A stretch of DNA of 64,000 nt. Source: an uncultured Phycisphaerales bacterium (lineage in GTDB: Bacteria > Planctomycetota > Phycisphaerae > Tepidisphaerales > Tepidisphaeraceae). This document shows, piece by piece, positions 40,147 through 63,811 of this stretch. Position 1 is the stretch's first letter, and every line of letters starts with the position of its first letter. The notes below the pieces were generated by a model. It made no database searches, was not told where the DNA came from, and saw only the letters and a list, made by a program, of their open reading frames with translations. Made by a program: the position numbers and the translations under genes. Location of the stretch: the NCBI GenBank assembly GCA_963755915.1, contig CAVWLP010000003.1, forward strand, positions 224,001 to 288,000, written 5' to 3'.

Positions 40147-41217
40147 TCATGATGCGCCTTGCCCGTCCAATGATGGGGCAACGAGGGTGCGCTTGGCGGG
40201 TTCGGCGGGATTGGCGATGCGGCGGATCAGCCGCTCGAATGCCGCCCGGCCAATCGCTTCTGAGCCGATATCGATGCTGATAGGTTCGGGAATCAACGCG
40301 GCGCGGCGCAGATATTCGTTGGTGACCGTCGCCACCATTAGATCGCGGCCCGGGACGATCTTGTTTTGATACAGCAGCGGATAGACCTGCGCCGCCAGCA
40401 GATCGGTCGGCAGAAACAGGCCAGGTTTCGTTTCCGGCGCGATTTTTCCGGCCAGGATTTGGGCAAGCTGCTCCAGGCTGTCGCCGACGGATAAATGAGA
40501 GCCAAATGAATCCAGAACCAGCGCATCGCGGCGCCGGAGGATAAAATGCACCAGGCTGGAATCTTCTGCGGCGGCGTGCGAAAAGGCCTGGCAACGGCCC
40601 CGCATCGGTTCACGTTCCGGCTGATCGCATAAACAGAAGAATTGTCCGCAGCCGACGCCGGCGAGCTTCTGATACGCGAGGCATCCAATCGCCGCGTCGT
40701 CGGCCCACACCTGCTCAACCTTCACCGTCGAAGCCAATACCGCTGCACTGGCGATCCATACCAGCGGCACAAAATCGGCGCATCGTTGGAAGATTACTTT
40801 CGATGTTTCAGGTTCAGCCAAAACAATAGCGCCGGCGGCGCCGCGGTTTTGCAGCAGATTCGCAATGTCACAGTGCGCGGGATCCAATTCTTCCAGCAGA
40901 ACACGCATTTTCGCCTGCCGGGCGGCGCCGGTGATGCCTGCCAGGACTCCTCCCATCGCGGGTTGTTCCAACCACCGCAGGCTCTTACCAACGGCCAGAA
41001 CGGCGATCTGGTTTGGCCGGGACCCACTCGTGCGCGGGCCGATCTTCGGCCCCCGGCGCACCGTTGGCAGCGAATATCCCAACTGCTGCATCGCCGCATG
41101 GACGCGGTCGGCGGTTTCGGTGCGCACACTTCCTGGGGCGTTCAACACCCGGGAGACGGTCGCGGTAGAAACCTCAGCAATTCTCGCAACATCGACGATC
41201 GACATTGTCGCTCTCAT
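40147..41217 (-). CDS. LacI-family transcriptional regulator
   Basis: SIVDVARIAEVSTATVSRVLN HTH followed by a periplasmic-binding-like domain. Confidence 0.9.
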   Translation of the reverse strand: MRATMSIVDVARIAEVSTATVSRVLNAPGSVRTETADRVHAAMQQLGYSLPTVRRGPKIGPRTSGSRPNQIAVLAVGKSLRWLEQPAMGGVLAGITGAARQAKMRVLLEELDPAHCDIANLLQNRGAAGAIVLAEPETSKVIFQRCADFVPLVWIASAAVLASTVKVEQVWADDAAIGCLAYQKLAGVGCGQFFCLCDQPEREPMRGRCQAFSHAAAEDSSLVHFILRRRDALVLDSFGSHLSVGDSLEQLAQILAGKIAPETKPGLFLPTDLLAAQVYPLLYQNKIVPGRDLMVATVTNEYLRRAALIPEPISIDIGSEAIGRAAFERLIRRIANPAEPAKRTLVAPSLDGQGAS

Positions 41218-41725
41218 TATCGTCGCTTTGTTACCTGATTTGGCCTCGCGATGCGACTCACTACCCCCGCCGCGGTACAGTCGATTTTCCGGCCAACTTC
41301 AGGCATCAATTCGACGATCCTTTAAAAATCTGCACTTCAAATTCGAATCCTCCGCCGCCGCTCGGAGAAACCGAGCAACTGGCGACGAGGCGAAAGTCTC
41401 AAAAAATCCGAGGTTCTCGGATGAGCAAGCCGAACGACCTGTCGGCAAAGCCAACGATCCGGCCGCGATTGACAAATTTTCAGCGGCTAACGTGTTAGTG
41501 TCCATGGCGTTGACTGCGGCACTATCTAAATCGCCACCGGTTCCGCCCTGGCAAGCACCAGAGCTTCAAACAGCATAATCTCTTTGCACCGGCAAGCCAA
41601 TGAAAATTTGAAAATTTTATATAATTTGATTTATTTTGTCATTTAGCCGGTTAGATTAATCGAACCGCGCTAAGAATTTCATTTGGAGCTTGCAGGAGGG
41701 CGCGGTGGCCTCGGAGGAGTCTTTC

Positions 41726-42622
41726 ATGTCCAACGCTTTCCGAAAAAGCGACCTGCCACGACTCGGATTTACACTCGTCGAACTCCTCGTCGTGATCGCC
41801 ATTATTGCCCTGCTGATTTCCATCTTGTTGCCGGCTCTCAACAAGGCCCGCTACCAGGCCATCGTCACCCAGTGCGAATCCAACGAGCGGCAACTCGGCG
41901 CGGCAATGATCATGTACGCCGGCGACAACAGCGGATTTCTCCCTCGCTTTGATCTGCCCACCGGGTACGGCGCGGGCAACCTCTCTGACCTGCTGGGCGA
42001 CGGCGCTGGCACCAACCTTCAAATTAGCTGCGCCACCGGCTTCTATGGTTATCTCAATTCCCTTTATAAAGTGACGCAGCCCATCTTCTTCTGCCCGGCG
42101 GGCAACACTGACACTTACAATACGATCTTCACTGAGTACAACACCGGCACTTTTCCCATGCAGGCGATTTCCTATGCCGTCTGGGTGCCGCACATCAGCG
42201 ATGGCGTAGAAGTGCCGCCCGTCTATTACAGCTATCCACCCCCCATATCTTCTGTAGCATGGTCGGGCACAGGCCCGCCCGTAGTCCCCCCCTCCGGCGC
42301 CGTTTCCAACAAGCTGATCATTATGTACAAGGCGGCGCCCATCCATGCCCCGATCAAGCTTGGCGACAAGGGGCTGACTGCAAATCCGATGCTGACCGAT
42401 GCCGTTTACCTCAGTCAAAACGTCGATTTCGCCGACCACGGCACGGCTATCAATTTCACGACCGTGCCCCAGATCAATTATCAGACGCAATACGGCGGCC
42501 ATTACCGCGGAGGAGTTTTGGAATCGGTCAACGCCTGCTATGTCGATGGGCACGTTGATCGCATCCCGGCCGCACAGGTGCAAGTGCGCTACGGAAGCCT
42601 CAATGCATGGGTTTGCCGGTGA
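41726..42622 (+). CDS. Prepilin-type N-terminal cleavage/methylation protein with H-X(n)-DG C-terminus (DUF1559-like)
   Basis: [29 protein letters not shown]...C.SN.RQLG.A..MY, FFCPA, GH...NACYVDGHV. Confidence 0.92.
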
Positions 42623-42668
42623 ATAGTTAAATCTGCGAACAACACATTCTTGATGTGGAGGATAGAAA

Positions 42669-44900
42669 ATGAAGTCGAAAGCTTCCCAGTTCATCGTACC
42701 ATCCAAAAAGCGTGCGGCTCTAATCTGTTCCGCCGCCGCGCTGACGGCGCTCAGCGGACGGAAGGCCTGGGCCAATCCGGGAATGACGAACCTGGCGCTC
42801 GACGCGGCTGCCGGCGGCAACGCCACCGCGACAGCCACGAACTCTGACTATGGTTCGACACCCAATCTTGCCATTGCCGGCACTACAGACGGGAATTTCG
42901 GCGATGGGACGGTATGGTATGGAAACTCTCCCAGCTCTGAAGGGACAAATACCAGTCCGTCGACAACCTATAACTACACGGTCAATCTGGGACAAAACGA
43001 CTACATCGATCGCGTTCAGTTCCTGCCCCGCACCGACGCCGATCAAAACATCTTCGGCAACTTCAGTATTTCCATCTATCAGGGCGTCGCCGGCCCCGAC
43101 AACACTGTCGTCCCCGCCGCTACCCCTTCGTTCTCCGAAGACTATAACAGCGGTTATTTCGGAGATACTTTCGCCACAGCCGACCCCGGGAACTCGGCCA
43201 ATGGTGGCTCGGCCAACGGGAGCTATGGCCAGTTTGTCCGCATTACGCGGCTCGACAACAACTATTGGATGACGTTCGCTGCAATGCAAGTCGTCGGCTC
43301 ACCGGTGCCCATGCAGGACACGATAAGCAACGACCTTGCCCTGAATAAACCGGTGACGACTTCCTCACCGGCGGGATTTGGGGGCTCTATTAGCGGCGGC
43401 AACGATGGCAATATCAGCGGCGATCTCAACGCCCCCAGCTCGCCCGACTTCTGTTCTTCGACGGCCGGCGCAGGTCAATACTGGCAGGTCGATCTCGGCG
43501 CAAACACCTCGCTCTCGACTGCCGAACTATTTTGCCGCGAGAACGTGAATGAAAACACCACGAGCCAGTTCGATGTGGAAGTGTTCAACAGCTCGATGCA
43601 AGAGGTTGACTCGGTAATCGTGAACAATAACGAGTCGGCTGGAAATTTTGATCACGAGATTAATCTGAGCGGCGTTACCGGCGAGTTCATACGCCTGGCA
43701 ACGACGCAAAATCAGTATCTTTCCTTTTCGGAGTTGGAGGTGTTCGGAACTTCCCAAACGGAGCAATGGGCCTCTACGAATTCCGGCGACTGGAACAACA
43801 TCGACAACTGGAACGGCGGTACCGTGCCCAACGCCGTGGGCGCCGAGGCCGATTTCTTCGGCGCGATCTCCTCCAATCAGACTGTCTTCACCAATGCTCC
43901 TGTCACCGTGGGAACGCTCAACTTCAACAATTCAAGCACCTACGAGATCACCGGAAATGGTTCCCTCACTCTTCAGGCGACCAGCGGCAACGCCCAGGTC
44001 ATCGTTCAGCAGGGAACGCATGTGCTGGATCTCCCGGTGACGATCGCCAGCAACACGAACTTGGACGTCGCCTCCGGTGCAACCCTCGTCGTTGCCAACC
44101 CAATCACCATCAACTCCGGCAACAGCATCGCCAGCACGGGCAGTGGAACCGTCAACTTTCAGTCCATCATCACCGTCGACAGCAACGCCTCGATCGCTTT
44201 CGGGAACTCCACCTACGCCAACAAGCTTTCCGTTGCCTCCAGCGGTACAGCCTCCATTCAGGGCTCCGGCAACGTTGTTGAAGTAGACAGTCTTTCCAAC
44301 CTCGGCACCGTCGATATCACCAAAAACGAGTTGCTCATCAACTACGCCGGTCAGGGTGATCCAATTTCTTCCATCGCCCAAGAGCTCAAGAGTGGCTACA
44401 ACAACGGCGGCTGGAACGGTACGGGAATTATTTCCTCCGCCGCTCAAACCACGCAAGGTGGCTTGCGCTACGGCGTCGGCTGGGCCGACGGCGCGGATAA
44501 CGTCGTCTCCGGCCTGTCTTCCGGAGAAATCGAAGTCAAATATACGCTCCTCGGCGACGCCAACCTTGATGGCGTCGTAAATGGATCCGACTTCAGCATA
44601 CTCGCGGCGAACTTCGGGCTCGGTCATACGAACTGGGATCAGGGCAATTTCCTCTTTTCGTCTTCGGTCAACGGCGCCGATTTCGCCGCTCTGGCGGCAA
44701 ATTTCGGGCAGGGAGACAATCTCTCCGCTGTCACGGTTTCACCCGCCGACATCGCGGCCCTCGACGCCTTCGCCGCCGCCAATGGCCTGCTGGCGGATGT
44801 GCCGGAACCGGTGACACTGGGCCCGCTGGCTTTGGGTGCCTTGGCCATATTCGCGCGCGGCGCAGTCGCGCCCGCACTCATCGTCGAAATTAAAACCTAA
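42669..44900 (+). CDS. PEP-CTERM protein with two F5/8-type C/F-type-lectin-like domains and a dockerin-like C-terminal module
   Basis: NLAL...A.DG...VNLG...IDRV...PRTD...GQFVRI...FAAMQV; second repeat NDLALNKPV...YWQVDLG...FSELEVF; GDANLDG.VNGSDF; VPEP (tail likely frameshifted from ...RRRSR). Confidence 0.85.
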   Translation: MKSKASQFIVPSKKRAALICSAAALTALSGRKAWANPGMTNLALDAAAGGNATATATNSDYGSTPNLAIAGTTDGNFGDGTVWYGNSPSSEGTNTSPSTTYNYTVNLGQNDYIDRVQFLPRTDADQNIFGNFSISIYQGVAGPDNTVVPAATPSFSEDYNSGYFGDTFATADPGNSANGGSANGSYGQFVRITRLDNNYWMTFAAMQVVGSPVPMQDTISNDLALNKPVTTSSPAGFGGSISGGNDGNISGDLNAPSSPDFCSSTAGAGQYWQVDLGANTSLSTAELFCRENVNENTTSQFDVEVFNSSMQEVDSVIVNNNESAGNFDHEINLSGVTGEFIRLATTQNQYLSFSELEVFGTSQTEQWASTNSGDWNNIDNWNGGTVPNAVGAEADFFGAISSNQTVFTNAPVTVGTLNFNNSSTYEITGNGSLTLQATSGNAQVIVQQGTHVLDLPVTIASNTNLDVASGATLVVANPITINSGNSIASTGSGTVNFQSIITVDSNASIAFGNSTYANKLSVASSGTASIQGSGNVVEVDSLSNLGTVDITKNELLINYAGQGDPISSIAQELKSGYNNGGWNGTGIISSAAQTTQGGLRYGVGWADGADNVVSGLSSGEIEVKYTLLGDANLDGVVNGSDFSILAANFGLGHTNWDQGNFLFSSSVNGADFAALAANFGQGDNLSAVTVSPADIAALDAFAAANGLLADVPEPVTLGPLALGALAIFARGAVAPALIVEIKT

Positions 44901-44926
44901 TACCCTTGTTATGCGGAGGAAAGAAA

Positions 44927-46104
44927 ATGAAATCGAAAGCTATACAGTTCATGTCGCAATCTAGGATCCGTGTTGCGCTTATCTGCTCTTCCAGCGCTGC
45001 GGTGGCGCTCGTCGGATCGAGTAAGGCCTGGGCCGACCCGGGGATGACGAACTTGGCGCTCGACGCCGCTGCCGGCGGGATAGCCACCGCCACGGCGACG
45101 AACTCTGATTATGGAACGACGCCTGACCTCGGCATTGACGGCGATCGAGACGGGAACTTCTACGACGGCTCGGTGTACTATGGAAACTCCCCCAACGATG
45201 AGGGGACCAACACCAGTCCATCGACAACTTATTTCTACCAGGTCAACCTGGGCCAAAACGACTACATCAACCGCATTCAGTTCCTGCCGCGCACCGACAC
45301 GACGCAGAACGTCTTTGGCAACTTCAATATTTCGATCTATCCGGCCATGTCCAACGGTCAGCCGGCGGCGACTCCTTCGTACTCCCAGAACTTTAACACC
45401 GGCTATTTCGGCCCTGAATTCGCTACCGCCCTCCCCGGGGCTCCGGCCGGCGGCGTTAATGGCCAATATGTTCGCATCACCCGCCTCGACAACAACTACT
45501 GGCTCACCTTCGCTGAAATGGAAGTGATCGGCTCATCCACGCCGGTCCAGTACAATCTGAGCAACGACATCGCCCTCGGTAAACCCGTGACGTTGGATCC
45601 GGGGGATTCGGCCGGATATGGATCAACGAATGCCTCCGGCAACGACGGCGATATCAACGGTGATTTCTACGCCCCGAACCAGGGCGTCACCAACGCGGGC
45701 GGCACCCCGTCTTTTTCTCGAATAATTACGGTACCACCAATCAAGTATACTGGCAGGTCGACCTCGGCGCGGACATCCCGCTTTCCTACGCCGAACTATT
45801 TGCCCGCATGGGTTCCAATTCGACGTCCGAATTCGAAGTAGAGGTGTACGACAGTTCAATGGACCTCGTCGATACCTCGATCGTGAGCAACAACGACGTG
45901 AATGGAACGGACCCCGGTTATGATCACGAAATCGACTTTAAAGGCGTTGTCGGCGAGTACGTGCGGGTGACACCCGGCCCCGACGCTGGCTCTTCGTACC
46001 TGTCGTTTTCGGAACTTGAGGTATTTGCCGTTCCGGAGCCATCGACGTTTGTTCTCGGTGTGGCCTGTCTCGCTGGGTTCATGCACCGCCGCCGCACTCG
46101 TTGA
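44927..46104 (+). CDS. PEP-CTERM protein with two F5/8-type C/F-type-lectin-like domains; paralog of the previous gene (frameshift ~45720)
   Basis: Near-identical N-terminus (MKSKA...PGMTNLALDAAAGG...NSDYG); ends FSELEVFAVPEPSTFVLG...RRRTR. Confidence 0.85.
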
Positions 46105-46143
46105 AGCATTGGGTTTGCGGCACGTACCAATAGTATCTCGGCA

Positions 46144-48569
46144 ATGAAATTTTGTTTGCTCGCTCTTTTGATTTTCGCCGCGCCGTTCCGGTGTGCGGCA
46201 CAAACGATTTCTTCAGCCCCCGAAACCCTGATCTGGTTCGACGCCCAGGCTTCTAACTTCACGGAATCCACGCCATTGGGCAACGGCCGCCTCGGGGCAA
46301 TGATGTTCGGCGGCGTGGACGAAGAGCGGATCGTCCTGAACGAGAATTCAGTGTGGTCCGGTTCACGTCAAGATGCCGACCGGCCGCAGGCCTACAAGGC
46401 CTTACCAGAAATCCAGCGGTTGTTGCTCGAGGGAAAAAATTCCCAGGCCGAAGCGCTCGTTAATGCGCAGTTCGTCTGCCAGGGACCCGGGTCCAACTCC
46501 GGCACCGGCGACAGCCAATTCGGATGCTATCAAACGCTGGGAAATCTACATCTATCATTTTCGGGCGACACCAACACACCCGTCGAAAATTATCGCCGCG
46601 AATTGAATCTCAACGATGCCGTGGGACGTGTGGAATTCAATCGGGGCGGCACAACTTTCTCCCGCGAAATGTTTGTAAGTTGGCCGGATCAGGTGATGGT
46701 TTTACACCTGACCGCCGATCGCCCTCAGGCGATTTCTTTTGACGCACGGCTCGACCGGCCGGAGCGATTCGCAACCGCCGGGGACGGTGAAAACGGTTTG
46801 CTGATGACCGGTCAATTGAATGATGGCCTGGGTGGAAAAGGCATCTCCTATGCCGCTCGAATTCGCGTTTTGGCTCGTAGTGGCCAGGTATCCGTTCATG
46901 AAAATCTGTTAAGTGTCAAGAACGCCGACGAGGTAACTTTGCTGATAGCGGCGGCAACCGACTACCAGGGCTTCGCCGGCCGTCAAACCAAAGACCCTTT
47001 GACTGCAACATCAGATGATTTGAACAAAGCTGAACAGAAAATCTTACGACTCGCTGCGCACGGCGCAGCGTGGCAGACTACCAAAAGTATTTCCAGCGCG
47101 TTTCACTGCAACTCGGTCCGGGAAATTCGGCCGCGGCAACCCAGCCCACACCGAAGAGAATTGAAGCCGCGGCCGAGAGGCCGGGCGATCCAAGTTTGGC
47201 CGCCTTGTATTTCAATTTCGGCCGCTACTTGTTGATTTCCTCGTCTCGACCAGGCGGCCTACCGGCTAATTTGCAAGGCATTTGGGCCGAGGAAACTCAT
47301 ACGCCCTGGACCGGCGACTGGCACTTGGACATGAATGTCGAAATGAACTACTGGCCGGCAGAAGTCTGCAATCTTTCGGATCTGACTGAGCCATTGTTCG
47401 CCTTGATCAACTCGTTACAAGTCCCCGGCGCTAAAACAGCCCATGACTATTACAACGCACGCGGGTGGGTCGCACATGTGATAACAAATCCGTGGGGCTA
47501 TACGTCGCCCGGGGAAGCCGCATCGTGGGGTTCTTACTGTGGAGGATCGGCCTGGTTGTGCCAGCATCTCTACGATCACTATCTCTTCACCCGCGATCGG
47601 AAATTCCTGCAATGGGCTTATCCGATTCTGAAGGGCGCCGCGCGTTTCTATAGTGACGTATTGATCGAAGAACCGACACATCACTGGCTGGTGATCGCCC
47701 CGTCCAACTCACCCGAGAACCATTTTAAAACGGCCGATGGCACCGATGTGTGTATTGCTGCCGGTCCAACTATGGTTCAGCAACAGGTGCGATATCTGTT
47801 TACGGCCTGCATAGACTCAGCTCAGACGCTTGGCATCGATGAGGAATTCCAGAAGGAACTGACGGCCAAGCGCGCACGGCTGGCCCCAACGCAAATCGGT
47901 TCCGATGGACGCATCCTGGAGTGGCTGGCTGAATATAAGGAATCGGATCCCCATCATCGTCACGTTTCGCATTTATGGGGATTGTATCCCGGCAACGAAA
48001 TCTCGCCCTACTCGACTCCGCAGCTCGCAGAAGCGGCTCGCAAATCTTTGGACGTTCGCGGCGATCTACCCAACCTTGCATCGGGCGAAGGCGGAATTGG
48101 ATGGTCGCTCGCCTGCAAGGCCGCCATGCGAGCCCGGCTCGGCGAGGGGAACAATGCTTGGAGCCTGGTGCGAATGGCACTTGAACCCGCATACGGCACA
48201 CACCACGACCCCAACTCCGGCGGAGGGGTGTATGCCAATCTGTTTGATGTCTGCCCTCCATTTCAAATTGACGGAAACTTTGGAATGACTGCGGCGATTG
48301 GTGAAATGTTGGTTCAAAGCGACAACCACGTCATTTATCTGCTGCCCGCGCTCCCAGACGCTTGGAAGCAAGGGAAAGTGACCGGATTGCGGGCGCGCGG
48401 GGGCTTTGAAGTCTCCATGACCTGGAACGACGGAAAGCTTACTTCAGCAACCGTCCGGTCTGACCAGGGTGAGCCAATCCGCATCTGTTACAAAGGCTCG
48501 GCATTGGACCCTAACCTTGCAAGCGGAGAGGGCGTTACGTTGGATGGAAATCTTACCGTGAAGCCCTGA
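46144..48569 (+). CDS. GH95 alpha-L-fucosidase, secreted (frameshift ~47050-47070)
   Basis: PLGNGRLGAM, LNENSVWSG, FNFGRYLLISSSR, PANLQGIW, EMNYWPAE, HRHVSHLWGLYPG, PPFQIDGNFG, LLPALP. Confidence 0.93.
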
Positions 48570-48599
48570 GCTTCATTCCCGGCAATGAGACTATTCCAA

Positions 48600-49631
48600 T
48601 CAGATCCGACGCGCGCGGCGGCGAAGTAAACCGCAACCACATAGTCCCAACAGGGACAAAGCAGCGGGCTCGGGGACGGAGATGTCAGAGACTATCAATG
48701 AGCTGTAATCAATCCGCTGTGTGGCGCCACGCATGCCGAAGCCAATCCCGTCGTAGGTGAGATTGGGCGTGGACGCGGCGGTGGCCGTGGAAGTGTTCCC
48801 TTCCTCAAATGTTCCCGCCGTGCCGCTACCCGAGCCAGTGTTCAAGTACAGCGAGTTGCTGATACTCAGCGAGCCATTGGCGTTGAGTGTAATCGTCAGG
48901 TCCTGAGTGTAGGTGTCCCCGAGGACTGCGATGTAATTCGCACCCGTATTCGCACCGAGCGAGGTTTGGGCAGACGCGCTACCGACACCCCCGATGACCA
49001 GATCCTGGTTGATCTGTTGGGTCGCCCCCGTCTGGGCTGCCCGCGAAAATATATAGTTACCGTTGCCGGCCGTAGAGGAAATCTGGCCGACATATCCGGC
49101 CCAGTTCTGTACGCCTCCGTCGGCTTCCGTGCCACTGGATGACAATCCGGAATTCTGCAGATTGGTGTAGGGCACCACCGAGGGAGCTGCCGAAACATTT
49201 CCGTTCGAATTGAACAAACCAAGATCGGTATAATCGCCCGTCGTCTGCAGGACGGCGCCGCTCGTGGCTACGAACGTCAGGTCTGCCTCGATGGTAGTAA
49301 CACCGGTCAAGGATAAGGTAACGGGCGTTTGCGTGAACAGCGATTCAAACTCGGCATAACCAGAGCTACTGGTGTAGTTCAGTTCCAGATCGCCCGATGC
49401 GATGCTGGCGCTGGCGCCCTTGTTGGATGCGGCATCGTAGCTGGTGGAAGTCGAGGTGACATTGCTGCTCGTCAGCGTTTGGTTGAGCGACGAACTGCCG
49501 AAGCCATCATCAAAGATAGTGTTGGCTTGGCCGTGCGATGAAGACAACGCGACAAGGCATCCCGCCGCAACTCCCACAAAGAGGTTGCCGGCCCGTTTGT
49601 CCGTACGACTCAAAAGATCCCTCGTTCTCAT
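48600..49631 (-). CDS. PEP-CTERM sorting domain surface protein
   Basis: Start MRTRDLL after AGGAG; signal peptide; S/T/G-rich; VPEPAALSLLGLCGCGLLRRRARRI. Confidence 0.88.
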   Translation of the reverse strand: MRTRDLLSRTDKRAGNLFVGVAAGCLVALSSSHGQANTIFDDGFGSSSLNQTLTSSNVTSTSTSYDAASNKGASASIASGDLELNYTSSSGYAEFESLFTQTPVTLSLTGVTTIEADLTFVATSGAVLQTTGDYTDLGLFNSNGNVSAAPSVVPYTNLQNSGLSSSGTEADGGVQNWAGYVGQISSTAGNGNYIFSRAAQTGATQQINQDLVIGGVGSASAQTSLGANTGANYIAVLGDTYTQDLTITLNANGSLSISNSLYLNTGSGSGTAGTFEEGNTSTATAASTPNLTYDGIGFGMRGATQRIDYSSLIVSDISVPEPAALSLLGLCGCGLLRRRARRI

Positions 49632-52448: not shown

Positions 52449-52502
52449 GGAATTTCGAAAAAAGGATTCTACAAATAAAGACTCGAACTTCCGGGGTTTT
52501 AA

Positions 52503-55100: not shown

Positions 55101-55114
55101 ATTGTGTCTTCCCT

Positions 55115-56322
55115 CTACCTCAGGGCGTCACCATTTCGCGAAAGTCCCTTTCCGTTTTTGCGATATACGTTTGGCGTCGCATTTTCTACTCGCATGAAAA
55201 CACGCCGAAATTGCCGCAGATCGGTGAAGCCGCAGGCCTGCGATATCCGGCTAAGCGTCATGTTCCTCTCCCGAAGCAATTCCTTCGCCCGCTGCACGCG
55301 AATTTCCGCAATGTATTCCGCGGGCGTTCGATTCAGGACGCTGTCGAACAATATTTCCAGTTGCCGGCGCAAACGCCCGCCGCGGTAACCAGCGCTTTCA
55401 CTCCGAACGGCTCGCCCGGATGGCTTTGCACAAATTCGACCGCCTTGGCGACCACCGGATGATCGATGACCATCACGTCGGTGGATTCGCGCTGAATAAC
55501 TCCATTGGGAGCGATCAGTTGATCGCATGACGGCCGCGGTTTTCCGTTCATCAGCTCGTCGAGCAGATGTGCGACCTGAAACCCGACTTTCCACCAGTCG
55601 CACTCAATTGTGGTCAACTTCGGCGAGCCAAATTCGCAGTCGATTTCGTTATTGTCGACGCCAATGATGCCCATTTCCTCCGGCACCTTTAGGCCCGCCT
55701 GCAGGCAGGCGTCGGCCAGCATCCGCGCTCGAGCGTCGCTAACGGCGAACACACCGATCGGCTTCGGCAGCTTCTTAATCCACTTGCACAGCCCGTAAAT
55801 CGCGTCGTCCCACAGTTGCTCGTGCATGAGCATGTTCGGGGAAATGTATCGAAACACGGACGAGGTTTTGGAGGCAAGCCGTGCGCAAAATTCCGATTCG
55901 CGCGTGATCGAATACCCGGCGCCTTCAACGCCATAAAACCCGAAATGCCGGAACCCCCGGTAGAGCAGATGTTCAGCCGCCATCCGGCCGATGGCCGCCT
56001 GATCCATCATGACCCGCGGAATTCCCGGATTCTGCACCAATGCCACGAACGTAACCACCGGTATTTTCATCCGCCGAGCGGCCTTGGCTTCCGCTTCCGT
56101 GCCGAAGGAAGTGATGATGCCGTCGCCCTGCCAGCGTCGGAGCGATCGGATCGAAAGATCGTTCGCCTCTCCGCTCGTCGTGAAGACCCAATTCCCGTGT
56201 TCATGCGCGTAATCGGCGATTCCCTGCACGACCGTGTGTAAATGGGCCAGCCGCACCGGGAAGGCAAGCGCAACCCGGCGCGGAGAATGTTTTTGCTTTG
56301 GCGCTATCCGTTTAGGAATCAT
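55115..56322 (-). CDS. XylR-type regulator (LacI-like ligand domain + AraC HTH), frameshift ~55375
   Basis: GIADYA, AAEHLLYRGFRHF, LPKPIGVFAVSD, GVDN; RQLEILF...RTPAEYI..IRV..AK.LL, ACGF. Confidence 0.88.
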
Positions 56323-56335
56323 GGCTTGCAAAATT

Positions 56336-57750
56336 CTAAGGACCTACCTGGTTTTCCAGTACAACAACTTGCCAGTGCGGGATGAACATGTGTACGGCCA
56401 AAAACGCGCAGGGGAAACCGCACCCGGCAAGAACGAACAGCAACGAGTAGTTCCCGCCGGTGTGCTGAAGATACCACCCGGCGAACTCCGCGAAGGCCAT
56501 CGAACCGATGGCGCCCGCTGCCGTGCCCAACCCCACCATCGAAGCGATGGCGCGCTTCGGATACAGGTCGGTTGTGATCGAGTAACTGTTGGCCGACCAC
56601 CCCTGCATCGCGGCCATCGCGAATCCCACCACCAGGATTGCCGGCCACATCAGCGGGATCAGACCCACAAAAGCAATCGGAATCACACAAAACGCGCAGA
56701 GCCCAAGCGAAAACTTGCGGGCGAAATGCACCGACTTTCCGTTCGAGATCAACCACGTCGCAAGCACGCCGCCCAAAATGCTCCCGATGAGCTGCATGCT
56801 GAACGCCGTGGCCAGCGGCCACCCCGCCTGCGAAATGCTTACCTTGAACCGGGAGGCAAGAAACTTCGGAAGCCAGAAAACCTGGAACCACATCACCGGC
56901 ACAACCAGCGCGGCCGATATCAGAATCCCCCAGGTCTGCGGAAAACGAAACAACTCAAACCAATGCACTCGGCCAACGTCCTCGTTGGCCGCCGAACGCG
57001 CAATCTCCGGATCGTCATCCGTCCGGATGAACGAAACGTCGGCCTCCGAAAGATAGCGAGACTTTTCCGGACGCTGGTAGAACAAAAGCCACAGCACGAT
57101 CCAGACGAATCCTAACGCGCAAGAACAATGAACGCCATCTCCCAATTCCAGGTCTTTACGATCCACGGGACGAGCAGAGGCGCAATGATGGCGCCGCTGC
57201 TCGTTCCGGTGTTAAACAAGCCCGTCGCCAGAGACCGCTCGCGGCGCGGGAACCATTCCCCGACCGTTTTCGTAGCGGCCGGAAAATTACCGGCTTCCCC
57301 AAGGCCAAGAGCGAAACGCGCCGCCGCGAATCCAAGAAGAGTCGTCGTCAACGCCGTCGCGCAAGCGGCCAGGCTCCACACCGCAATTGCGAAGATATAC
57401 CCCACCTTCAACCCACATCGATCGATGAACCAGCCCACGCCCAGCAGGCCGATCATATAGGCAAGCTGAAACGCGAAGACGAGGTGGCCGTATTCCTGCT
57501 CGTTCCAACCGAATTTTCCCTGCAGTATCGGGGCGAGGATCGCCATGACCTGCCGGTCCATGTAGTTGATCGACGTCGCCAGGAAGAGCAGCCCGCAGAT
57601 GAGCCAGCGAAAGGAAGCACCGTGAAAAAGTCTCCCGGAAGGTCGATTCCAGGCGACTCCCCGGCCCGCGGAAATTGATTTGGACGGCTCGGTGAAGGCC
57701 GAACGCGCCTGGCTCTCACTGCCTTCCTGCCGGGACGTGCGTAACATCAC
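56336..57750 (-). CDS. MFS hexuronate (ExuT-like, ACS family) transporter, frameshift ~57115
   Basis: INYMDRQ, LGLGEAGNFPAA.K.V.EWFP.RER.LATGLFN.G, FWLPKF, MQGWSAN. Confidence 0.88.
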
Positions 57751-57861
57751 GAACCTCGTCTTTCGATTCCGCTGATCGGAAATGATACCGTCGATCCCGT
57801 TGCTCGCATAAAAGCGAGCCTGCGTACCAACGCGCTTAATTGCGCAGCCCTTGTTCCGGGA

Positions 57862-59313
57862 CTACGAACCGGCCGGCCTCGTCGCCGGATGATCAATGGC
57901 CAGCGTTTGTGAATCAATGTCGCTGCAATCCCGCGTCAAAAGGCCGGCCTCATCTTCCGTCTCAAACACGCAATCCTGGAAATGAACGCCGGTCGCATTT
58001 GTGCATGAAAAGCCGTGCCGGGACCGTACATGCACGTTACTGAAAGTAATGTCCGAGACAGGCATTTCGCGTAAACCGGTTATCGTGCCGGCGTCCGTCG
58101 CCCCGCGGACGGTTACGTTGGTGATCAGGATGTCCCGCAGCCGGGGAGTTGAGTCGCTCACCGGATATGTTTCGCCGGGCTTGTCCTTGCCCATGTAGAA
58201 CGTGGTAATTACGAACGGATGCGGAACGTCCTCCATAACGATGTTGTCAAACGCCACTCCCTCAATGACGCCGCCTCTTCCTCGCTGGCTTTTGATGCGG
58301 ATACCGCTGTCGGTTCCATGAAATACGCAATTGTTAACGGTGATGTTACGAACACCGCCCGACATTTCGCTGCCGATGGTCACACCACCATGACCATGGT
58401 AAGTCGTGCAGTTGGCGATGAGGATATCCTCGTCCGGCCGTCCCATCCTGCGGCCCGACTCATCTTCCCCGCTTTTCAGCGTGATGCAGTCATCCCCGTC
58501 GTCCACCCGGCAATTCAGAATCTGCACGCTTCGGCAGGATTCCGGATCAATACCATCTGTATTCGGCGAGGGAATGTGGGCTGAAATCGTTACCCCATCG
58601 ATGCGCACGCCGTCGCAAAGCAATGGATGAATATTCCATTCCGGCGAATCCAACAGAGTAACGTGCTCGACCACCACACTTGTACAGCGCAGAAACCGAA
58701 TCAACTGCGGACGGCCCAGCGGGAGGCCGGGCAGCGAGCCCACAATCTGAGGCTGCGGCGGCGCCGGCGGAGGGTCATACGTGCCGGTCGGGTCTTCGCT
58801 ACGTGCGTGCCGCTTGGCCTTCATCGCCAGTATGGGCCCCCACCACGATGCGCCCCGACCGTCAATCGTCCCGTTGCCGGTAACCGTGATGTCCGCCGCA
58901 TCATGCGCATAGATCAGCGCCGACATCCATCGTTTTTCTGGCTCCCACGGACTTTCCACCATCGGATAATCGGACGAGTTTTGGCTGGCAAGAAGCGTGG
59001 CGCCCTCGTCAATCTCCAGACAGACGTGAGACTTCAGCTCAAGCGCGCCGGTCAGATAGCGCCCGCCCGGGATAAGGACAGTGCCTCCGCCAGCCTCGAA
59101 GCATGCGGTAATCGCCTTCGAAATCGCCCCCGTGTCCAGAGTCCTGCCGTCGCCAACTGCACCGAAATCGGCAACATTCCAGATCGGCGGTCTGAGAGAA
59201 GCAGCTCGCGTGTCGGCGCAAATGCCGGCGGCGATCAGGGCGGCGATGAATAGTGAGCTTAATCCCGGCCGCGTCATAGAAGAATTCCTGGCGCCGCCAA
59301 GTCGCAGCCTCAT
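57862..59313 (-). CDS. GH28 polygalacturonase / exo-polygalacturonosidase, secreted
   Basis: DFGAVGDG, YLTGALELKS, PNTDGIDPESC, GDDCITLKSG, GHGGVTIGSEMSGG, GIRIKS.RGRGG; ATG overlaps the upstream stop (TAATG). Confidence 0.93.
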   Translation of the reverse strand: MRLRLGGARNSSMTRPGLSSLFIAALIAAGICADTRAASLRPPIWNVADFGAVGDGRTLDTGAISKAITACFEAGGGTVLIPGGRYLTGALELKSHVCLEIDEGATLLASQNSSDYPMVESPWEPEKRWMSALIYAHDAADITVTGNGTIDGRGASWWGPILAMKAKRHARSEDPTGTYDPPPAPPQPQIVGSLPGLPLGRPQLIRFLRCTSVVVEHVTLLDSPEWNIHPLLCDGVRIDGVTISAHIPSPNTDGIDPESCRSVQILNCRVDDGDDCITLKSGEDESGRRMGRPDEDILIANCTTYHGHGGVTIGSEMSGGVRNITVNNCVFHGTDSGIRIKSQRGRGGVIEGVAFDNIVMEDVPHPFVITTFYMGKDKPGETYPVSDSTPRLRDILITNVTVRGATDAGTITGLREMPVSDITFSNVHVRSRHGFSCTNATGVHFQDCVFETEDEAGLLTRDCSDIDSQTLAIDHPATRPAGS

Positions 59314-60206
59314 TAAAACAAAGGCTGGCCGTATTTATTCCAAGACGTCGCCCAGGCGCCGTTTTTCCAATATCCAACCAGGTAGTCCTTGGTTGTAAAC
59401 GAACTAAAAGCACTTCCACTGGGAGGCGAATTGTAAAGCCATGGGATATTGGTGATGTTGATGCTTCCGCCCCCTGGCATCACGAAATTATTCGGGGTCA
59501 CCAGGGCAACATGGCCGTCTGCGCATAGGACATTGGCTTGGGTTCGCTTGGTGTGGGGGAACCACATGAATGGGCACTGCTGCGATGCGGGAGCCCATGT
59601 GGCCCAGTGATTGCCAAGAAGGTAGTTTATTTCAGCGAACAGACTTATCCGCCATTGGTTGCTGTTACCGCCACCGCCTTCGGCATAAGCCTTATCGATG
59701 TCCGTCGCGAGAATCACGTTCCCCGGAATTCCGCTCACCTTTTGCACTGGCGCTGGGGCGGGCGACGTTGCGGGAATCACAATACTTCCGATATTTCCAT
59801 TGTACGTGTAGTCGCCCCAGTAATTATTCGTCCCAATGGGACCGGTTATGTCCAACGTGTGGTCCGCCGACGGGCAATAGAGATATTTGAGGACCGTCTG
59901 GTCGTTTTGGTTTGAGTTGTCGTTTGCGTTGTTGCCCCCCACCTCATTGCCGATCAATCCCGGAGACCACCAGAAAGTAAGCACGTTCGGCGTGCTCATC
60001 TCGGCAGGCAGTGCATAGCCCTGATAATCATCTGAATAAAGGACATAAAGAGCGTATATCTGCCGAAGATTCGACTGACACGCCACCGTATTCGCCTGCT
60101 CCCTCGCTTTCTGCAGCGCCGGCAGGAGAATTCCAATCAAAACGGCGATGATTCCGATGACCACAAGCAATTCGACAAGAGTAAATCCGGGTTTAGGTCT
60201 CCGCAT
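59313..60206 (-). CDS. Prepilin-type N-terminal cleavage/methylation protein with H-X(n)-DG C-terminus (DUF1559-like)
   Basis: [32 protein letters not shown]...CQSNLRQ, YCPSA, PH....[10 protein letters not shown]. Confidence 0.92.
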
Positions 60207-60306
60207 ACTGTCCGCCTCGTAAAGTCATTTCGCTCCGTCCGAGAGATGGTGGGCGAATCGCGCCCAGCTACGGAGGAACTATGACACGCCCTCGATATGC
60301 GCACTA

Positions 60307-60341
60307 GTGCTTTCTTGCGCATTGATGTGCTATTTTGCGCA
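60307..60341 (-). promoter_or_regulatory. AraC/XylR-type direct-repeat operator upstream of the DUF1559-GH28 operon
   Basis: gtgctttcttgcgca (60307-60321) and gtgctattttgcgca (60327-60341); 20-bp period. Confidence 0.6.
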
Positions 60342-60562
60342 AGATATTCAGATGGTCTCCGCGCGCTCGCCCGATCGTAATTTAGTCTTTGAGATTCACG
60401 CTCCGCCGCGGCGCGACCCGCTTCGCAAAACGGATCATCCATTCGCAATATGGCTCTTTCGCGAACTGCGGGCGCCGCTATATTTCCGGCAACACAACAG
60501 GCAATTCGGTCAAGGCGGTCGAATTCTCAAACGAGCTCATTCAACGTAATTGGAGGGTTATC

Positions 60563-63500
60563 ATGAAAGAGTCGAGCAGCGGCTTCCTCTCGGGCACTTT
60601 GAACAATTTCTCGCGGAACGCTCGGCGCACCCGCCGCTCCGCGGCAGTCCTGGCCTCGGCCACGGCCGTCAGCTTCCTCACGTTGAGGGGGCACGCGCAA
60701 ACGACCAATCTCACGTGGGACCCGGCACAGAATGCCAACAACTCCCTTCCCGCCAGCGGCGGCAGCGGAACCTGGAACACGACCCTTGCCAACTGGTCCA
60801 ACGGCACCGCGGACGTCGTCTGGGCGGACACCTCCGGAACGCTCGATAACGCCATCTTCGGCGGCACGGCCGGAACGGTTACGCAGAATGCAAACCTCGG
60901 TGCTGCCGAGGTGATCTTCCAAACACCGGGCTATTCCATCAACAGCGGTTCGAACATTCTGCTCCTGGCGACAGCAGGCACAACCATCGACACCAGCGAC
61001 ATCGGTTCCGGGTCCGCCAGCCTGGGCAACGTGGATATCGGCGCCAGCGCGGAAACCTGGAACGTCGGCTCGGCTGCTCTCGCCTTTAACGGCGCGGTTC
61101 GCGACAACGGGCAGTCCAGCACCACCCTCACCGTCAACGGAAGCGGCACGACTCAGCTCTCGGGCGGCCTCACGCTTACCAGTGGCAATTTTACGGCCAG
61201 GTGGACCGTTGCCGGCAGCGAAAACATTAACATTGCGGGACTCGTGCAGGACGGGAATACCGGCGGCAACTTCCTCACCTATGACGGCACGGGGACGCTC
61301 TCCCTGTCGGGAACATCCAATACGTTTGGGACCTCGACGTCATCAAATCTGGCCGTGGATAGCGGCGTGCTGGCCGTCGCCGCCGCCGGCTCGCTTGGAA
61401 GCTCCTCTAACCCGCTGGTACTTGGAAACAACACTGCCACCGCGACCTTCCAGGGCATTGGATCGAGCACCATCGCCGTTGCTAACCCCGTCACCCTCGG
61501 CGGCGGCGGTGGTGGTACCTCCATCATTGGCGGGTCTACGCCGCTGGTTTTCACCAACGTCACTGGCCAGGGCAGCTCCGATGATCTGAACGTAAATAAC
61601 ACCGCTTCCACCACCTTCAGCGGCAGCTTCTATCTTTCCGGCAGCGAAGGCAACCGAAGGGTCTTGATCGGCGGAACCGGCAGTCTCCTGATCAGCGCCG
61701 TCGTTAGCGATAATCCTTTGGAAGGACCGGGCATCAATCCTTCAACCCTTGCTTATCTCGGCACGGGAACGATGACCCTCACCAACGTCGACAACAATTT
61801 CTCGGGCGACCTGGCGGTCCAAAACGGCACAGTCGTCGTCACCAACGATGCAGTTCTCGGCGTCGGCAGCACTTTGTTCTTCGGCCCGGCTAGCGGCAGT
61901 ACGCCCGCGGGAGCGGGCATTTTTGAGGGTTCGGGCACTTCCACACTAACGATCGCCCACCCGGTGACGATAGATACCAGCACCGCGGATGACATCACCC
62001 TCGCCGGCACGACTCCGCTGCTGTTCACCAATACCATCACCTTCGACACCGCCAGTTCAACCACCAACACAGTCATCGTTAACGACACAGGCGGCGTCGT
62101 CTGGAATGCGCCCGTTTACCTTGCAACAGGCGGTAGCAATCGAACCACAACATTCGGCGGAGCCAACAATATCACTATCGACGGAGTCGTCGCCACCGGT
62201 ACGGTGGGCGTTACCACCACGTGTAATCTGGCCTATAGCGGAACCGGCACGATGACGCTCGCCAACGCCAACACCTACACCGGAACGAACACCGTTAACA
62301 GTGGCGTATTCGATGTCGCCAACACTTCCGGCTCCGCCACCGGAACCGGCAACGTAACATTGAATGGCGGCGTCCTCGCCAGCGGAAGCGTCGGCTCCAT
62401 TGCCGGCAATGTCATCGCCGGCAGCGGCGCGCACGCGATCGCCCCCGGCGGCGTCGGAAGCGTTGGAACACTGACTGTTGGCGGACTCACCACCAGTACG
62501 CTCACCACCCTGGACTTCGACCTCGGCACCGGCAGCGGCCTCGTCACCAATGGCGACAATCTCATCCTGGGCTCGGGACTCGTCAGCATTGCCAGCGGCA
62601 CACTCCTCACCTTTGGCGGCGCCACACCGGTTGCCGGCAATGACTACCAGCTCATTGGCGATACCAGTGGCTCCGGCGCCGTCGTCAGTCAGATCCAACT
62701 GGCGAATTTTACGCTCCCAGCAGCGCCGGCCGGCCTGGCCTACAGCCTCGCGGAAAGCGCCAACTTTATCGATCTCGATGTGATCAGCACCGGACCGGTT
62801 TCGCTCTTCTGGGATAATGCCGGCGGCAGTGGCAATGGCACCACCTGGGATACCAGCAACCAGAACTGGAACAACGGTTCAGCCGCAACGACCTACGCCG
62901 ACGGTGCGGCCGTCACCTTCAACGACACCAACGCCCTCCACTATGCCGTAACCCTCACCACCACCGTCAGTCCCGCCTCGGTGACGGTCAACAGCTCCGG
63001 CAACTACTCCATCACCGGCGGTGGTCTCATCGTCGCCACCGGCGGATTCACGAAGATGGGCACGAGCACTCTGACGCTCGGCGTTGGTCTGACCGCCAGC
63101 AGCCTGGCCATCAACGGTGGAAACGTCGTGCTTGCGAGCAACACGACCGCCAGCAGCGGCTGGACCGCCACCAATCCCGTCAGCAATATCAACGTCTCCT
63201 CGCTGACCATTGCGGCCAACAGCGTTCTGGACATCTCCAATAACCACGTGATCATCGACTACGGCGCCACCGACCCGATGTCTACCATCCTGGGCTACCT
63301 CAAGTCCGGCTTCAACAACGGCGCCTGGAACGGGACCTCTGGAATCATCTCGTCCGCCGCCCAGACCAAAACCAACGGCTTGACCTACAGCATCGGTTGG
63401 GCCGACGGAAACGACAAAACCGGGGCCGTGAAAAACCTCACCAGCGGCGAGATCGAATTGAAGTACACGCTGGTCGGCGACGCCAATCTCGACGGCACCG

Positions 63501-63811
63501 TCAACGGCTCCGACTTCTCGATCCTGGCCGCCAACTTCGGCCTCGGCGTCACCAACTGGGACCAGGGGAACTTCCTGTATGGCAGTTCGGTCAACGGCTC
63601 CGACTTCAGCGCCTTGGCGGCGAACTTCGGCCAGGGCGATAGCGGCGCTGCCGTGACGGTTACGCCCGCAGACGTGCAGGCGCTCGACGCCTTCGCGGCC
63701 GCCAACGGCCTGCCAGCGCCGACGATCGCCGCGGTGCCGGAACCTGCGAGCCTTGGCCTCTTGGCGCTGGGCGCCACCAGTTTACTGGCCCGCCGCCGGC
63801 GGTCTGAGTGA
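60563..63811 (+). CDS. Large PEP-CTERM protein with autotransporter-associated beta-strand repeats and a dockerin-like C-terminal module
   Basis: GGAGG RBS before MKESSSG; repeated GTGTL.L...NT[FY].G...V..G.L; GDANLDGTVNGSDF; VPEPASLGLLALGATSLLARRRR. Confidence 0.9.
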   Translation: MKESSSGFLSGTLNNFSRNARRTRRSAAVLASATAVSFLTLRGHAQTTNLTWDPAQNANNSLPASGGSGTWNTTLANWSNGTADVVWADTSGTLDNAIFGGTAGTVTQNANLGAAEVIFQTPGYSINSGSNILLLATAGTTIDTSDIGSGSASLGNVDIGASAETWNVGSAALAFNGAVRDNGQSSTTLTVNGSGTTQLSGGLTLTSGNFTARWTVAGSENINIAGLVQDGNTGGNFLTYDGTGTLSLSGTSNTFGTSTSSNLAVDSGVLAVAAAGSLGSSSNPLVLGNNTATATFQGIGSSTIAVANPVTLGGGGGGTSIIGGSTPLVFTNVTGQGSSDDLNVNNTASTTFSGSFYLSGSEGNRRVLIGGTGSLLISAVVSDNPLEGPGINPSTLAYLGTGTMTLTNVDNNFSGDLAVQNGTVVVTNDAVLGVGSTLFFGPASGSTPAGAGIFEGSGTSTLTIAHPVTIDTSTADDITLAGTTPLLFTNTITFDTASSTTNTVIVNDTGGVVWNAPVYLATGGSNRTTTFGGANNITIDGVVATGTVGVTTTCNLAYSGTGTMTLANANTYTGTNTVNSGVFDVANTSGSATGTGNVTLNGGVLASGSVGSIAGNVIAGSGAHAIAPGGVGSVGTLTVGGLTTSTLTTLDFDLGTGSGLVTNGDNLILGSGLVSIASGTLLTFGGATPVAGNDYQLIGDTSGSGAVVSQIQLANFTLPAAPAGLAYSLAESANFIDLDVISTGPVSLFWDNAGGSGNGTTWDTSNQNWNNGSAATTYADGAAVTFNDTNALHYAVTLTTTVSPASVTVNSSGNYSITGGGLIVATGGFTKMGTSTLTLGVGLTASSLAINGGNVVLASNTTASSGWTATNPVSNINVSSLTIAANSVLDISNNHVIIDYGATDPMSTILGYLKSGFNNGAWNGTSGIISSAAQTKTNGLTYSIGWADGNDKTGAVKNLTSGEIELKYTLVGDANLDGTVNGSDFSILAANFGLGVTNWDQGNFLYGSSVNGSDFSALAANFGQGDSGAAVTVTPADVQALDAFAAANGLPAPTIAAVPEPASLGLLALGATSLLARRRRSE

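Follow-up and report, generated by a model that had tools for sequence, protein, structure and literature searches.

Type IV pilin-like genes with variable heads accompany two candidate glycan operons in an uncultured Phycisphaerales bacterium

Polysaccharide utilization loci (PULs) of the Bacteroidota are substrate-specific, regulated gene clusters, many per genome, in which a SusC/SusD pair is joined by surface glycan binders, surface and periplasmic carbohydrate-active enzymes (CAZymes) and an inner-membrane transporter. In this study, we analyzed computationally a 64,000-nucleotide stretch of DNA (the window) from an uncultured Phycisphaerales bacterium (assembly GCA_963755915.1, here genome G000; contig CAVWLP010000003.1, positions 224,001 to 288,000), in which two convergent sugar modules—one apparently for fucosylated glycans, the other for pectin—each contain a gene for a type IV pilin-like protein, which we call pilin A and pilin B, respectively. 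These modules are organized much like the Bacteroidota loci but have no SusC/SusD pair, use PEP-CTERM/exosortase sorting instead of lipidation, and share a pilin-like gene as their recurring marker; we infer that they function as a PUL analogue, that is, a CAZyme gene cluster marked by a private type IV pilin-like gene together with PEP-CTERM proteins.

Other described systems resemble parts of this arrangement. The Klebsiella pul secreton is coregulated with the surface-anchored pullulanase by the maltose regulator, so that pseudopilin genes adjoin a surface-anchored glycoside hydrolase under the same sugar regulator; there, however, the whole machine is encoded once, whereas here each locus has one private pilin-like gene and the machine would be shared. 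In the archaeal bindosome, as the passages of PMC3047682 on Sulfolobus present it, sugar-uptake proteins carry a pilin-type (class III) signal peptide and need a dedicated, type-IV-like assembly system; those are true solute-binding proteins of ATP-binding cassette (ABC) transporters, whereas the model of pilin B resembles a pilin fold and the loci of its family mostly have a major facilitator superfamily (MFS) transporter, a sodium/solute symporter (SSF) or no transporter at all. Closest in idea are the pili-like fibres of two Planctomycetia, Planctopirus and Gemmata, on which gold-labelled dextran was found (Boedeker et al. 2017, PMC5394234), and the hypothesis, in a 2025 review, of "dedicated pilin-like proteins" serving as "fishing rods" (PMC12078418). 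The proposal there is the same, namely that pilin-like fibres bind polysaccharide and help to bring it into the periplasm; the relevant passages of these two papers name no pilin genes and draw no link to DUF1559 or to CAZyme loci, and they concern Planctomycetia, not Phycisphaerae.

The protein family nearest to pilins A and B is DUF1559/TIGR04294, whose members have a prepilin N terminus followed by LLPA(L/V)xxAR, a C-terminal His...Asp-Gly motif and tens of paralogues per genome. In the passages that deal with them, DUF1559-type proteins are treated as a family of unknown function or as putative solute-binding proteins (PMC10632474, PMC4807772, PMC2754498) and are described as the largest paralogue family of many planctomycetes, Planctopirus having 68 copies, of which two are essential (PMC10632474). 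Our literature searches found the term "H-X9-DG" in only one, unrelated, paper and no link between the DUF1559-type or prepilin family and CAZyme operons or sugar regulators; the words pilin, type II secretion and PEP-CTERM are absent from the text of a Kiritimatiellia synteny study (bioRxiv 10.64898/2026.10.06.756941), and "pilin" is absent from the main text of a survey published in 2024, which covers the CAZyme gene clusters of 1425 planctomycete genomes and describes them as functionally uncharacterised with 30 to 34% of their genes unassigned. The idea of glycan-binding pili is already in print; the gene-level rule described here is new as far as these searches reach. That rule—a sugar regulator, then a private pilin, then surface-anchored lectins and CAZymes, the pilins having variable heads on a constant stem—is reproducible in the genome, gives a large planctomycete paralogue family a candidate link to polysaccharide use, and bears on uptake without SusC/SusD.

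A pilin-like family among sugar genes

The association between pilin-like genes and sugar genes is statistically solid in G000 and is conserved for the pectin pilin. Starting from pilins A and B, jackhmmer recovered 72 open reading frames (ORFs) at 63 loci of the genome, and at the 61 loci outside the two modules we took two called genes per side (231 genes, all scanned against Pfam); as a control we drew 40 random loci with a fixed seed, of which the first 36 (144 genes) were scanned and the last 4 were not. Genes were called with a simple codon-bias caller and classed by our own reading of Pfam names, and the CAZyme count excludes glycosyltransferases, GDSL esterases and lectin-only proteins. 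With one-sided Fisher tests throughout, family loci exceed random loci in (i) the presence of a glycoside hydrolase (GH) or polysaccharide lyase (PL) gene (21/61 versus 1/36; p = 1.3e-4); (ii) the presence of a sugar regulator of the periplasmic-binding-protein (PBP) type (18/61 versus 2/36; p = 3.5e-3); (iii) the presence of either within two genes (32/61 versus 3/36; p = 5.7e-6); (iv) the share of CAZymes among the neighbour genes (25/231 versus 3/144; p = 8.6e-4); and (v) the share of regulators among them (18/231 versus 2/144; p = 4.5e-3). The first-pass annotation of this DNA had suggested looking for an enrichment of CAZyme and LacI/XylR genes near pilin genes, and in G000 such an enrichment, of CAZymes and LacI/XylR/GntR-type regulators, is present. 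Placement is also ordered: of 19 regulator placements, 16 are upstream of the pilin gene (10 directly next to it), of 27 CAZyme placements, 17 are downstream, and at 27 of the 61 loci a same-strand downstream gene follows within 150 bp. Where they belong to CAZyme operons, the pilin genes stand within or at the front of the operon, usually shortly after a LacI-, GntR- or XylR-type regulator. PEP-CTERM ORFs, of which a regular expression finds 167 in G000, occur within 3 kb of 31/61 family loci compared to 17% of 2000 random sites (p = 1.9e-9), at a median distance of 2.6 kb versus 16.4 kb.

Both proteins have a class III signal peptide with G-1, F+1, E+5 and P+22, as type IV pilins and pseudopilins do, and both score above the cut-offs of N_methyl (PF07963; pilin A 27.6 and pilin B 30.9 bits, cut-off 21.2) and TIGR02532 (25.5 and 25.1 bits, cut-off 16.3). 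The narrower labels that had been given to them, DUF1559 and H-X9-DG, do not hold at the thresholds of the models: against PF07596 (cut-off 23.3 bits), pilin B reaches 14.9 bits, its match being confined to profile positions 1-20, and pilin A gives no match at E≤10, and neither matches TIGR04294 at E≤0.01 (cut-off 19 bits), the C-terminal motifs being H-X11-DGH in pilin B and H-X14-DGH in pilin A. The jackhmmer family nevertheless takes in the PF07596-positive proteins of G000, with 21 of its loci passing PF07596 and 18 passing TIGR04294, and the nearest Atlas clusters, from Planctomycetota (score 0.98), have PF07596 on 27 to 42% of their members. We class pilins A and B as divergent members of the DUF1559 superfamily in a wide sense. 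This family is very large, because at least 7817 of the 8000 candidates scored in a word-indexed search match it at E≤1e-5. A profile search of PDB sequences returned only pilins, over the stem region only, and the best named NCBIfam matches, all under their cut-offs, are GspG for pilin A (30.8 bits) and ComGC for pilin B (32.7 bits); against the GspG model TIGR01710 itself (88.85 bits), pilin A with 30.8 bits and pilin B with 27.8 bits match by the N-terminal stem only.

The stem is constant and the heads are not. Mean pairwise identity among 39 full-length paralogues is 69% over the first 45 mature residues and 21% over the remainder, and pilins A and B are 71% identical in the stem and 17% in the head. 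In 83 homologues, residues T9 to A21 are invariant except for G18, as are E12 (mature E5), P29 (mature P22), C43, C111, H218, N225 and G231, with D230 conserved to at least 90%. Subunits that must fit one filament or assembly platform would be expected to show this pattern: a constant stem, its conservation extending well past the membrane span, and heads free to diverge. Between G000 and its relative G124, pilin A (67% identical) and the second lectin-like protein (62 to 65%) evolve fastest in the fucoside locus, compared to 94 to 98% for the LacI regulator and 84 to 94% for the GH95 enzyme. The one separate pilin-gene cluster that we read (L050) has a stem different from that of the family.

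Structure prediction, which the first-pass annotation had proposed, was informative for one of the two proteins. The AlphaFold 2 model of pilin B, built from the 83-homologue alignment, is confident (pLDDT 90.3, pTM 0.85) and resembles type IV pilins, with a helix at residues 10-60 followed by an alpha/beta head, whereas that of pilin A proved unusable. Foldseek gave no match for the pilin B model at E≤0.001; an independent structure search returned 33 chains with Z≥2, of which ranks 1 to 21 are all type IV pilins or type II secretion system (T2SS) pseudopilins, with Z scores of 4.8 for PilA4 (the best), 3.8 for a ComGC-type pilus, 3.6 for EpsG and 2.8 for PulG and GspK, in a range (Z below 8) that can reflect a common arrangement. 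A solute-binding fold, as the Pfam name SBP_bac_10 would have it, is unsupported: the 33 chains include no solute-binding protein, although its absence there does not prove the point.

The link to pectin genes extends beyond G000. Neighbourhoods of pilin B were compared by tblastn of the window proteins on the flanks of its matches (E≤1e-40), which were found in 6 of the 140 other genomes of the order. In G124, genes for the pilin, an MFS transporter, a glycoside hydrolase of family 28 (GH28) and a carbohydrate esterase of family 8 (CE8) are consecutive, and nearby are a GH28-PEP-CTERM gene, a XylR-type gene and the gene for the large PATR protein (72% identical). G115 also has pilin, MFS, GH28 and CE8, and in G116 a GH28-PEP-CTERM gene adjoins the pilin. 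G010, of another genus, has two loci, one with two GH28 genes and a XylR gene and one with an adjacent XylR gene and a GH28 gene 8 kb off, and in G130 a 6.5-kb contig without GH28 holds XylR, the pilin and a 38% homologue of the PEP-CTERM gene at window position 48600. A metagenome scan for pilin B yielded 25 loci, mostly of 1 to 4 kb; among the five searched with the window proteins (L119-L123), L120 alone, with a pilin 75% identical, has all three neighbours found in the window, in the same order: the PATR protein (52 to 55%), the divergent pilin and GH28. For pilin A, 3 of the 140 genomes gave matches at E≤1e-35; synteny with G124 extends over the entire fucoside locus, the relative in G036 (48 to 53%) lies between a GH92 gene and a gene for a 1497-aa PATR protein, not GH95, and the relative in G041 has no CAZyme neighbour. 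Among the G000 paralogues, the three GH28-linked pilins are mutual best matches, as are the two pilins of DHDPS/GntR loci, one of which also has a sialidase-type (BNR_2) gene. The suggestion that pilin clades follow the CAZyme family beside them thus holds for pectin, where GH28-linked pilins form a clade within and across genomes, but is otherwise mixed.

No SusC/SusD pair was found in G000. As the first-pass annotation had stated, the window has no TonB receptor or SusD (none among 54 ORFs scanned). In the whole genome, SusD (PF07980) has 0 matches, with Bacteroides positive in the control, and TonB receptors (PF00593) have 3, with contexts of peptidases and PdxA, of a signalling cluster and of ExbB/ExbD; a scan of the 30 genes around these receptors showed no CAZyme or SusD, and no SusCD pair that would account for uptake was found elsewhere in G000. 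The genome does encode 17 matches to the ATPase family of T2SS and type IV pili, about 5 of them near-complete with more than 350 bits, as well as 5 secretin matches, a prepilin peptidase (PF01478, 75.5 bits), three exosortases and one T2SS operon (L011). The peptidase, ATPases and secretins show only the opportunity for pilin cleavage and assembly.

Layout of the fucoside and pectin modules

The gene layout given in the first-pass annotation is borne out for every gene it named by the ORF listing and by Pfam and NCBIfam scans of the window. On the plus strand, the fucoside module consists of a divergent LacI gene, pilin A, two discoidin-like PEP-CTERM proteins and GH95; convergent to it, on the minus strand, the pectin module runs from pilin B through GH28, the MFS transporter, the XylR-type regulator, CE8, a PEP-CTERM GH28 and a PEP-CTERM CE8 to a further PEP-CTERM protein. 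The features, in window coordinates, are as follows.

40147-41217, minus strand: LacI-family regulator (PF00356, 60.3 bits, and Peripla_BP_3), divergent from the fucoside operon
41648-41667, unstranded: imperfect palindrome CGGTTAGATTAATCGAACCG, 20 bp, between the LacI gene and pilin A; candidate operator
41690-42622, plus strand: pilin-like gene A, likely start ATG 41726 (N_methyl 27.6 bits, TIGR02532 25.5 bits)
42669-44900, plus strand: secreted F5/8-type-C (discoidin-like) protein, 743 aa (PF22633 and PF00754), with a dockerin-like module and a PEP-CTERM tail broken at the end
44906-46104, plus strand: second discoidin-like PEP-CTERM protein, with a frame break near 45704 in the window
46144-48569, plus strand: GH95 (alpha-L-fucosidase family; Glyco_hyd_65N_2 227.9 bits, GH95 catalytic domain 550.5 bits, GH95_C), split in the window
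48600-49739, minus strand: PEP-CTERM protein (PF07589, 22.6 bits), with no other recognised domain
50019-52448, minus strand: CE8 pectin methylesterase (PF01095, 85.9 bits), carrying a long extension and a PEP-CTERM tail that breaks off after VPEPASMGLVA
52503-54017, minus strand: GH28 polygalacturonase (PF00295, 179.6 bits) with a PEP-CTERM anchor, VPEPGSLSALIAAVATCLCAARWRGRR at 52515-52595
54186-55100, minus strand: CE8 pectin methylesterase (PF01095, 199.8 bits) with a signal peptide and no anchor
55115-56331, minus strand: XylR-type regulator, sugar-binding domain plus AraC helix-turn-helix (Peripla_BP_3 98.1 bits, PBP1_XylR), split in the window
56336-57750, minus strand: MFS transporter of the ACS / D-galactonate-hexuronate type (MFS_1 on both halves), split in the window
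57862-59313, minus strand: GH28 (PF00295, 159.3 bits) with a signal peptide and no anchor
59313-60206, minus strand: pilin-like gene B (N_methyl and TIGR02532), its stop overlapping the GH28 start
60315-60342, unstranded: pair of TTGCGCA boxes, 20 bp apart, between pilin B and the divergent PATR gene; candidate operator
60389-63811, plus strand: PATR-repeat protein, 1140 aa, with a dockerin-like module and PEP-CTERM (PATR and PEP-CTERM matches), divergent from pilin B

The genes are tightly packed. Pilin A is followed after 46 bp by the F5/8-type-C protein and this, after 5 bases, by the second lectin-like protein, whose first ~260 aa make the two discoidin-like proteins 64% identical over 259 aa; the TAATG stop/start overlap noted for pilin B and GH28 is confirmed. 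Three assignments call for more detail. The AraC-type half of the XylR-type regulator lies in the overlapping ORF 55115-55603 (HTH_18, 66 bits); the MFS halves score 133.9 and 78.3 bits against TIGR00893, under its cut-off; and the unanchored GH28, whose best NCBIfam matches are PglA (237 bits) and a BT4155-type protein (215 bits), both under their cut-offs, is probably a periplasmic or secreted exo-acting galacturonidase.

The proteins described as PEP-CTERM surface proteins do carry such tails, complete at 46030-46095, 48606-48677, 52515-52595 and 63734-63802, consistent with sorting by the exosortases of G000 (Exosortase_EpsH, 3 matches, best 165.7 bits). The second lectin-like protein ends in VPEPSTFVLGVACLAGFMHRRR at 46030-46095, in a different frame, and two further tails are broken by frameshift: the F5/8-type-C protein has VPEP and a hydrophobic stretch with the RR tail in a different frame, as is the remainder LLTLAARRRR of the tail of the CE8 protein at 50019. 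The C-terminal 190 aa of the F5/8-type-C protein are 69% identical to the end of the PATR protein (44250-44897 versus 63170-63808). This cassette includes a dockerin-like calcium-loop motif that is found in 70 of the 167 PEP-CTERM ORFs of G000 at a fixed 104 to 125 residues from the C end, scores 17.7 bits against Pfam Dockerin_1 (cut-off 22.9), and occurs in a PEP-CTERM gene within 3 kb of 19/63 pilin loci compared to 9.6% of random sites.

Two of the candidate operators recur in orthologous spacers. The palindrome CGGTTAGATTAATCGAACCG is kept with 2 changes in G124, where the spacer is 95% identical overall, and the TTGCGCA pair is present with the same spacing in contig L120 (2235-2262). 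The exact palindrome TTGCGCAA has only two copies in the window, 54048-54055 and 57840-57847, both in spacers of the pectin module; allowing one mismatch, it is not enriched across the window (35 matches versus 46.5 expected). The TTGCGCA pair or TTGCGCAA is a candidate operator of the XylR-type regulator. A promoter and terminator scan of 44001-64000 gave no signal, with 4 promoter-like sites versus 9.4 expected and 22 terminator-like sites versus 22.3.

How a private pilin may serve its locus

Each operon carries what we class as a private member of a type IV pilin-like family of about 60 proteins related to DUF1559. From the gene content, we propose—tentatively, and at what we judge a little short of an even chance—that these are two sugar-regulated glycan operons of a soil Phycisphaerae bacterium, for fucosylated glycans (GH95) and for pectin (GH28, CE8 and the hexuronate-type MFS transporter), in which a private pilin head in a shared type IV filament acts on the glycan of the locus. 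The sugar regulator would turn the operon on, and prepilin peptidase would then cleave the private pilin, which would enter the shared filament through the common stem. At the cell envelope, the locus-specific head would work on its glycan, holding the polymer or passing fragments across the outer membrane, alongside the surface-anchored lectins, GH28 and CE8. For pectin, the anchored GH28 and CE8 would act outside, the unanchored GH28 and CE8 would finish the breakdown, and the hexuronate-type MFS transporter would import the monomer. A bolder version, which we regard as doubtful, makes the whole DUF1559-type family a set of interchangeable heads on one polymerisation stem, with which each regulator would re-tip or re-coat a shared filament, and which together with the dockerin-like and PEP-CTERM proteins would form the planctomycete counterpart of SusC/SusD. 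The substrates of two family members can be guessed from their neighbours as pectin and a fucosylated glycan, and whether the pilins are glycan-specific fibre subunits or cargo-specific pseudopilins, either would represent a new mode of polysaccharide use in abundant soil and aquatic degraders.

Several observations weigh against a glycan-acting filament head. The model of pilin A is poor (pLDDT 50.5 from a 22-sequence alignment, only the helix at 17-67 being confident), the structural matches of pilin B, with a best Z of 4.8, are weak and amount to a resemblance, not proof, and its head has no recognisable carbohydrate-binding fold. The enrichment itself depends on a crude gene caller, our reading of Pfam names and 36 of 40 control loci. 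At 29/61 family loci the two genes on either side include no CAZyme or sugar regulator, which means that the family also occurs outside glycan loci; one family locus, L011, is an ordinary T2SS operon, and a CAZyme module of the same window (27226-40139) has no pilin gene. Clade tracking fails for the GH10, GH16, GH43 and GH2 pairs, which are not nearest paralogues, and for the distant pilin A relatives with GH92 (G036) or no CAZyme (G041). Moreover, the absence of SusD is not proof, because G000, an assembly of 3 contigs, is 81% complete with 8% contamination.

The main rival, which we consider unlikely although it fits the same genomic data as glycan capture, is that the private pseudopilins join a shared T2SS pseudopilus on induction and promote export of the enzymes and PEP-CTERM proteins of their operon, acting on cargo and not on glycan. 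The sub-cut-off matches to GspG (pilin A) and to ComGC and then GspG (pilin B) point in this direction, as do the canonical T2SS operon L011, the hydrophobic, signal-peptide-like N termini that we recognised by eye in all enzymes of both modules, several of which must reach the surface, and the translational coupling of pilin B to a secreted GH28, although this adjacency is not conserved, MFS intervening in G124 and G115. The Klebsiella secreton, coregulated with its pullulanase, would be a precedent for the principle; some 60 cargo-specific pseudopilins would be without one. The family stem is also unlike that of the pilin-gene cluster L050, and the faster evolution of the heads relative to the enzymes (pilin A 67% versus GH95 84 to 94% between G000 and G124) fits an exposed, ligand-facing surface at least equally well. 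In keeping with the secretion reading, a planctomycete is reported to up-regulate on fucoidan the "Type II Secretion system" along with 28 proteins labelled "secretion system" (PMC11685898).

Less probable still, and in our view improbable, is a bindosome-like arrangement, in which the stem would tether to the inner membrane, or loosely assemble there, a head that binds glycan fragments and that would feed an MFS, SSF or ABC transporter or signal to the regulator. Pfam names DUF1559 "SBP_bac_10" and passages of two papers call it a solute-binding family (PMC2754498, PMC4807772), the Sulfolobus sugar-binding proteins show that class III signal peptides can serve such a system (PMC3047682, in the passages cited above), and transporter genes lie within two genes of several family loci: MFS at L027, L034 and L051, SSF at L014 and L054, ABC parts at L012 and L022, and solute-binding proteins at L043 and L048. 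Many other loci, however, have no nearby transporter, the predicted structure of pilin B appears to lack a two-lobed fold, with ranks 1 to 21 of its matches pilins or pseudopilins and nothing lower resembling a solute-binding protein, and 45 conserved mature residues (69%), reaching past the membrane span, exceed the needs of a membrane anchor. We think it very improbable that there is no functional link, with abundant, fast-evolving accessory genes merely gathering in the same flexible regions and the pilins serving adhesion, motility or some unrelated role: the 29/61 loci without CAZyme or sugar regulator, transposase genes within two genes of a few pilin loci (L012, L017 and L038) and, in passages of PMC2754498, the response of some Rhodopirellula DUF1559 genes to salt, cold and heat shock would fit, but the enrichment was measured at two-gene range and not at island scale, genes of the window overlap or sit 46 bp apart on the same strand, the regulator is immediately upstream at 10 loci, and the association of pilin B with GH28 outlasts gene-order changes across genera.

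Frame breaks and further features of the window

Six genes of the two modules—GH95, MFS, XylR, the second lectin-like gene and the PEP-CTERM tails of the F5/8-type-C and CE8 proteins—are split or cut by frame breaks, which the first-pass annotation overlooked. We aligned contigs from four short-read soil-metagenome runs of one study, at least 99% alike, to 44000-60500 and found one-base differences at 45704, 47037, 47068, 54250, 55370 and 57119. The GH95 break consists of two extra bases, 47037 and 47068, both missing from the contigs of runs X1 and X2. Short-read contigs have an extra C behind 45704 in the second lectin gene (a single contig, run X2), an extra G behind 55370 in XylR (X1 and X2), an extra C behind 57119 in MFS (a single contig, run X4) and, in the unanchored CE8, an extra C behind 54250 (X1, X2 and X4) that alters the last residues. 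Because these contigs differ exactly at the breaks and GH95 is in one frame in G124, the frame breaks are most simply errors of the G000 assembly and not gene decay. A pseudogene reading of the split GH95, XylR, MFS and second lectin genes is largely rejected, as the short-read contigs remove the breaks; the tail breaks near 44857 (F5/8-type-C) and 50030 (CE8) were not settled by them. With six confirmed within 16.5 kb, one-base indel errors are frequent in G000, and therefore its gene calls and its 81% completeness are likely underestimates.

The third sugar module, which lacks a pilin-like gene, has at 27226-30892 a sugar ABC transporter and the binding protein belonging to it. Its other members are a gene with a Melibiase_C domain (31947-33131), a DUF5107/TPR protein (34241-36592), another XylR-type regulator (36754-37860) and GH36 (37922-40139), which is a further split gene. 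Two more PEP-CTERM proteins are encoded near the window start (2685-3893 and 4092-5225), and a DDE transposase gene (PF01609) lies at 12872-14134. A family pilin gene that straddles the left edge of the window (L047, G000 C3:223128-224057) has four neighbours without CAZyme or sugar regulator. At locus L041 (G000 C2:4295630-4307351), two pilin-like genes are accompanied by two GH27 genes, an extracytoplasmic function (ECF) sigma factor and a FecR/NPCBM protein, a sigma/anti-sigma pair in place of the LacI- or XylR-type regulator.

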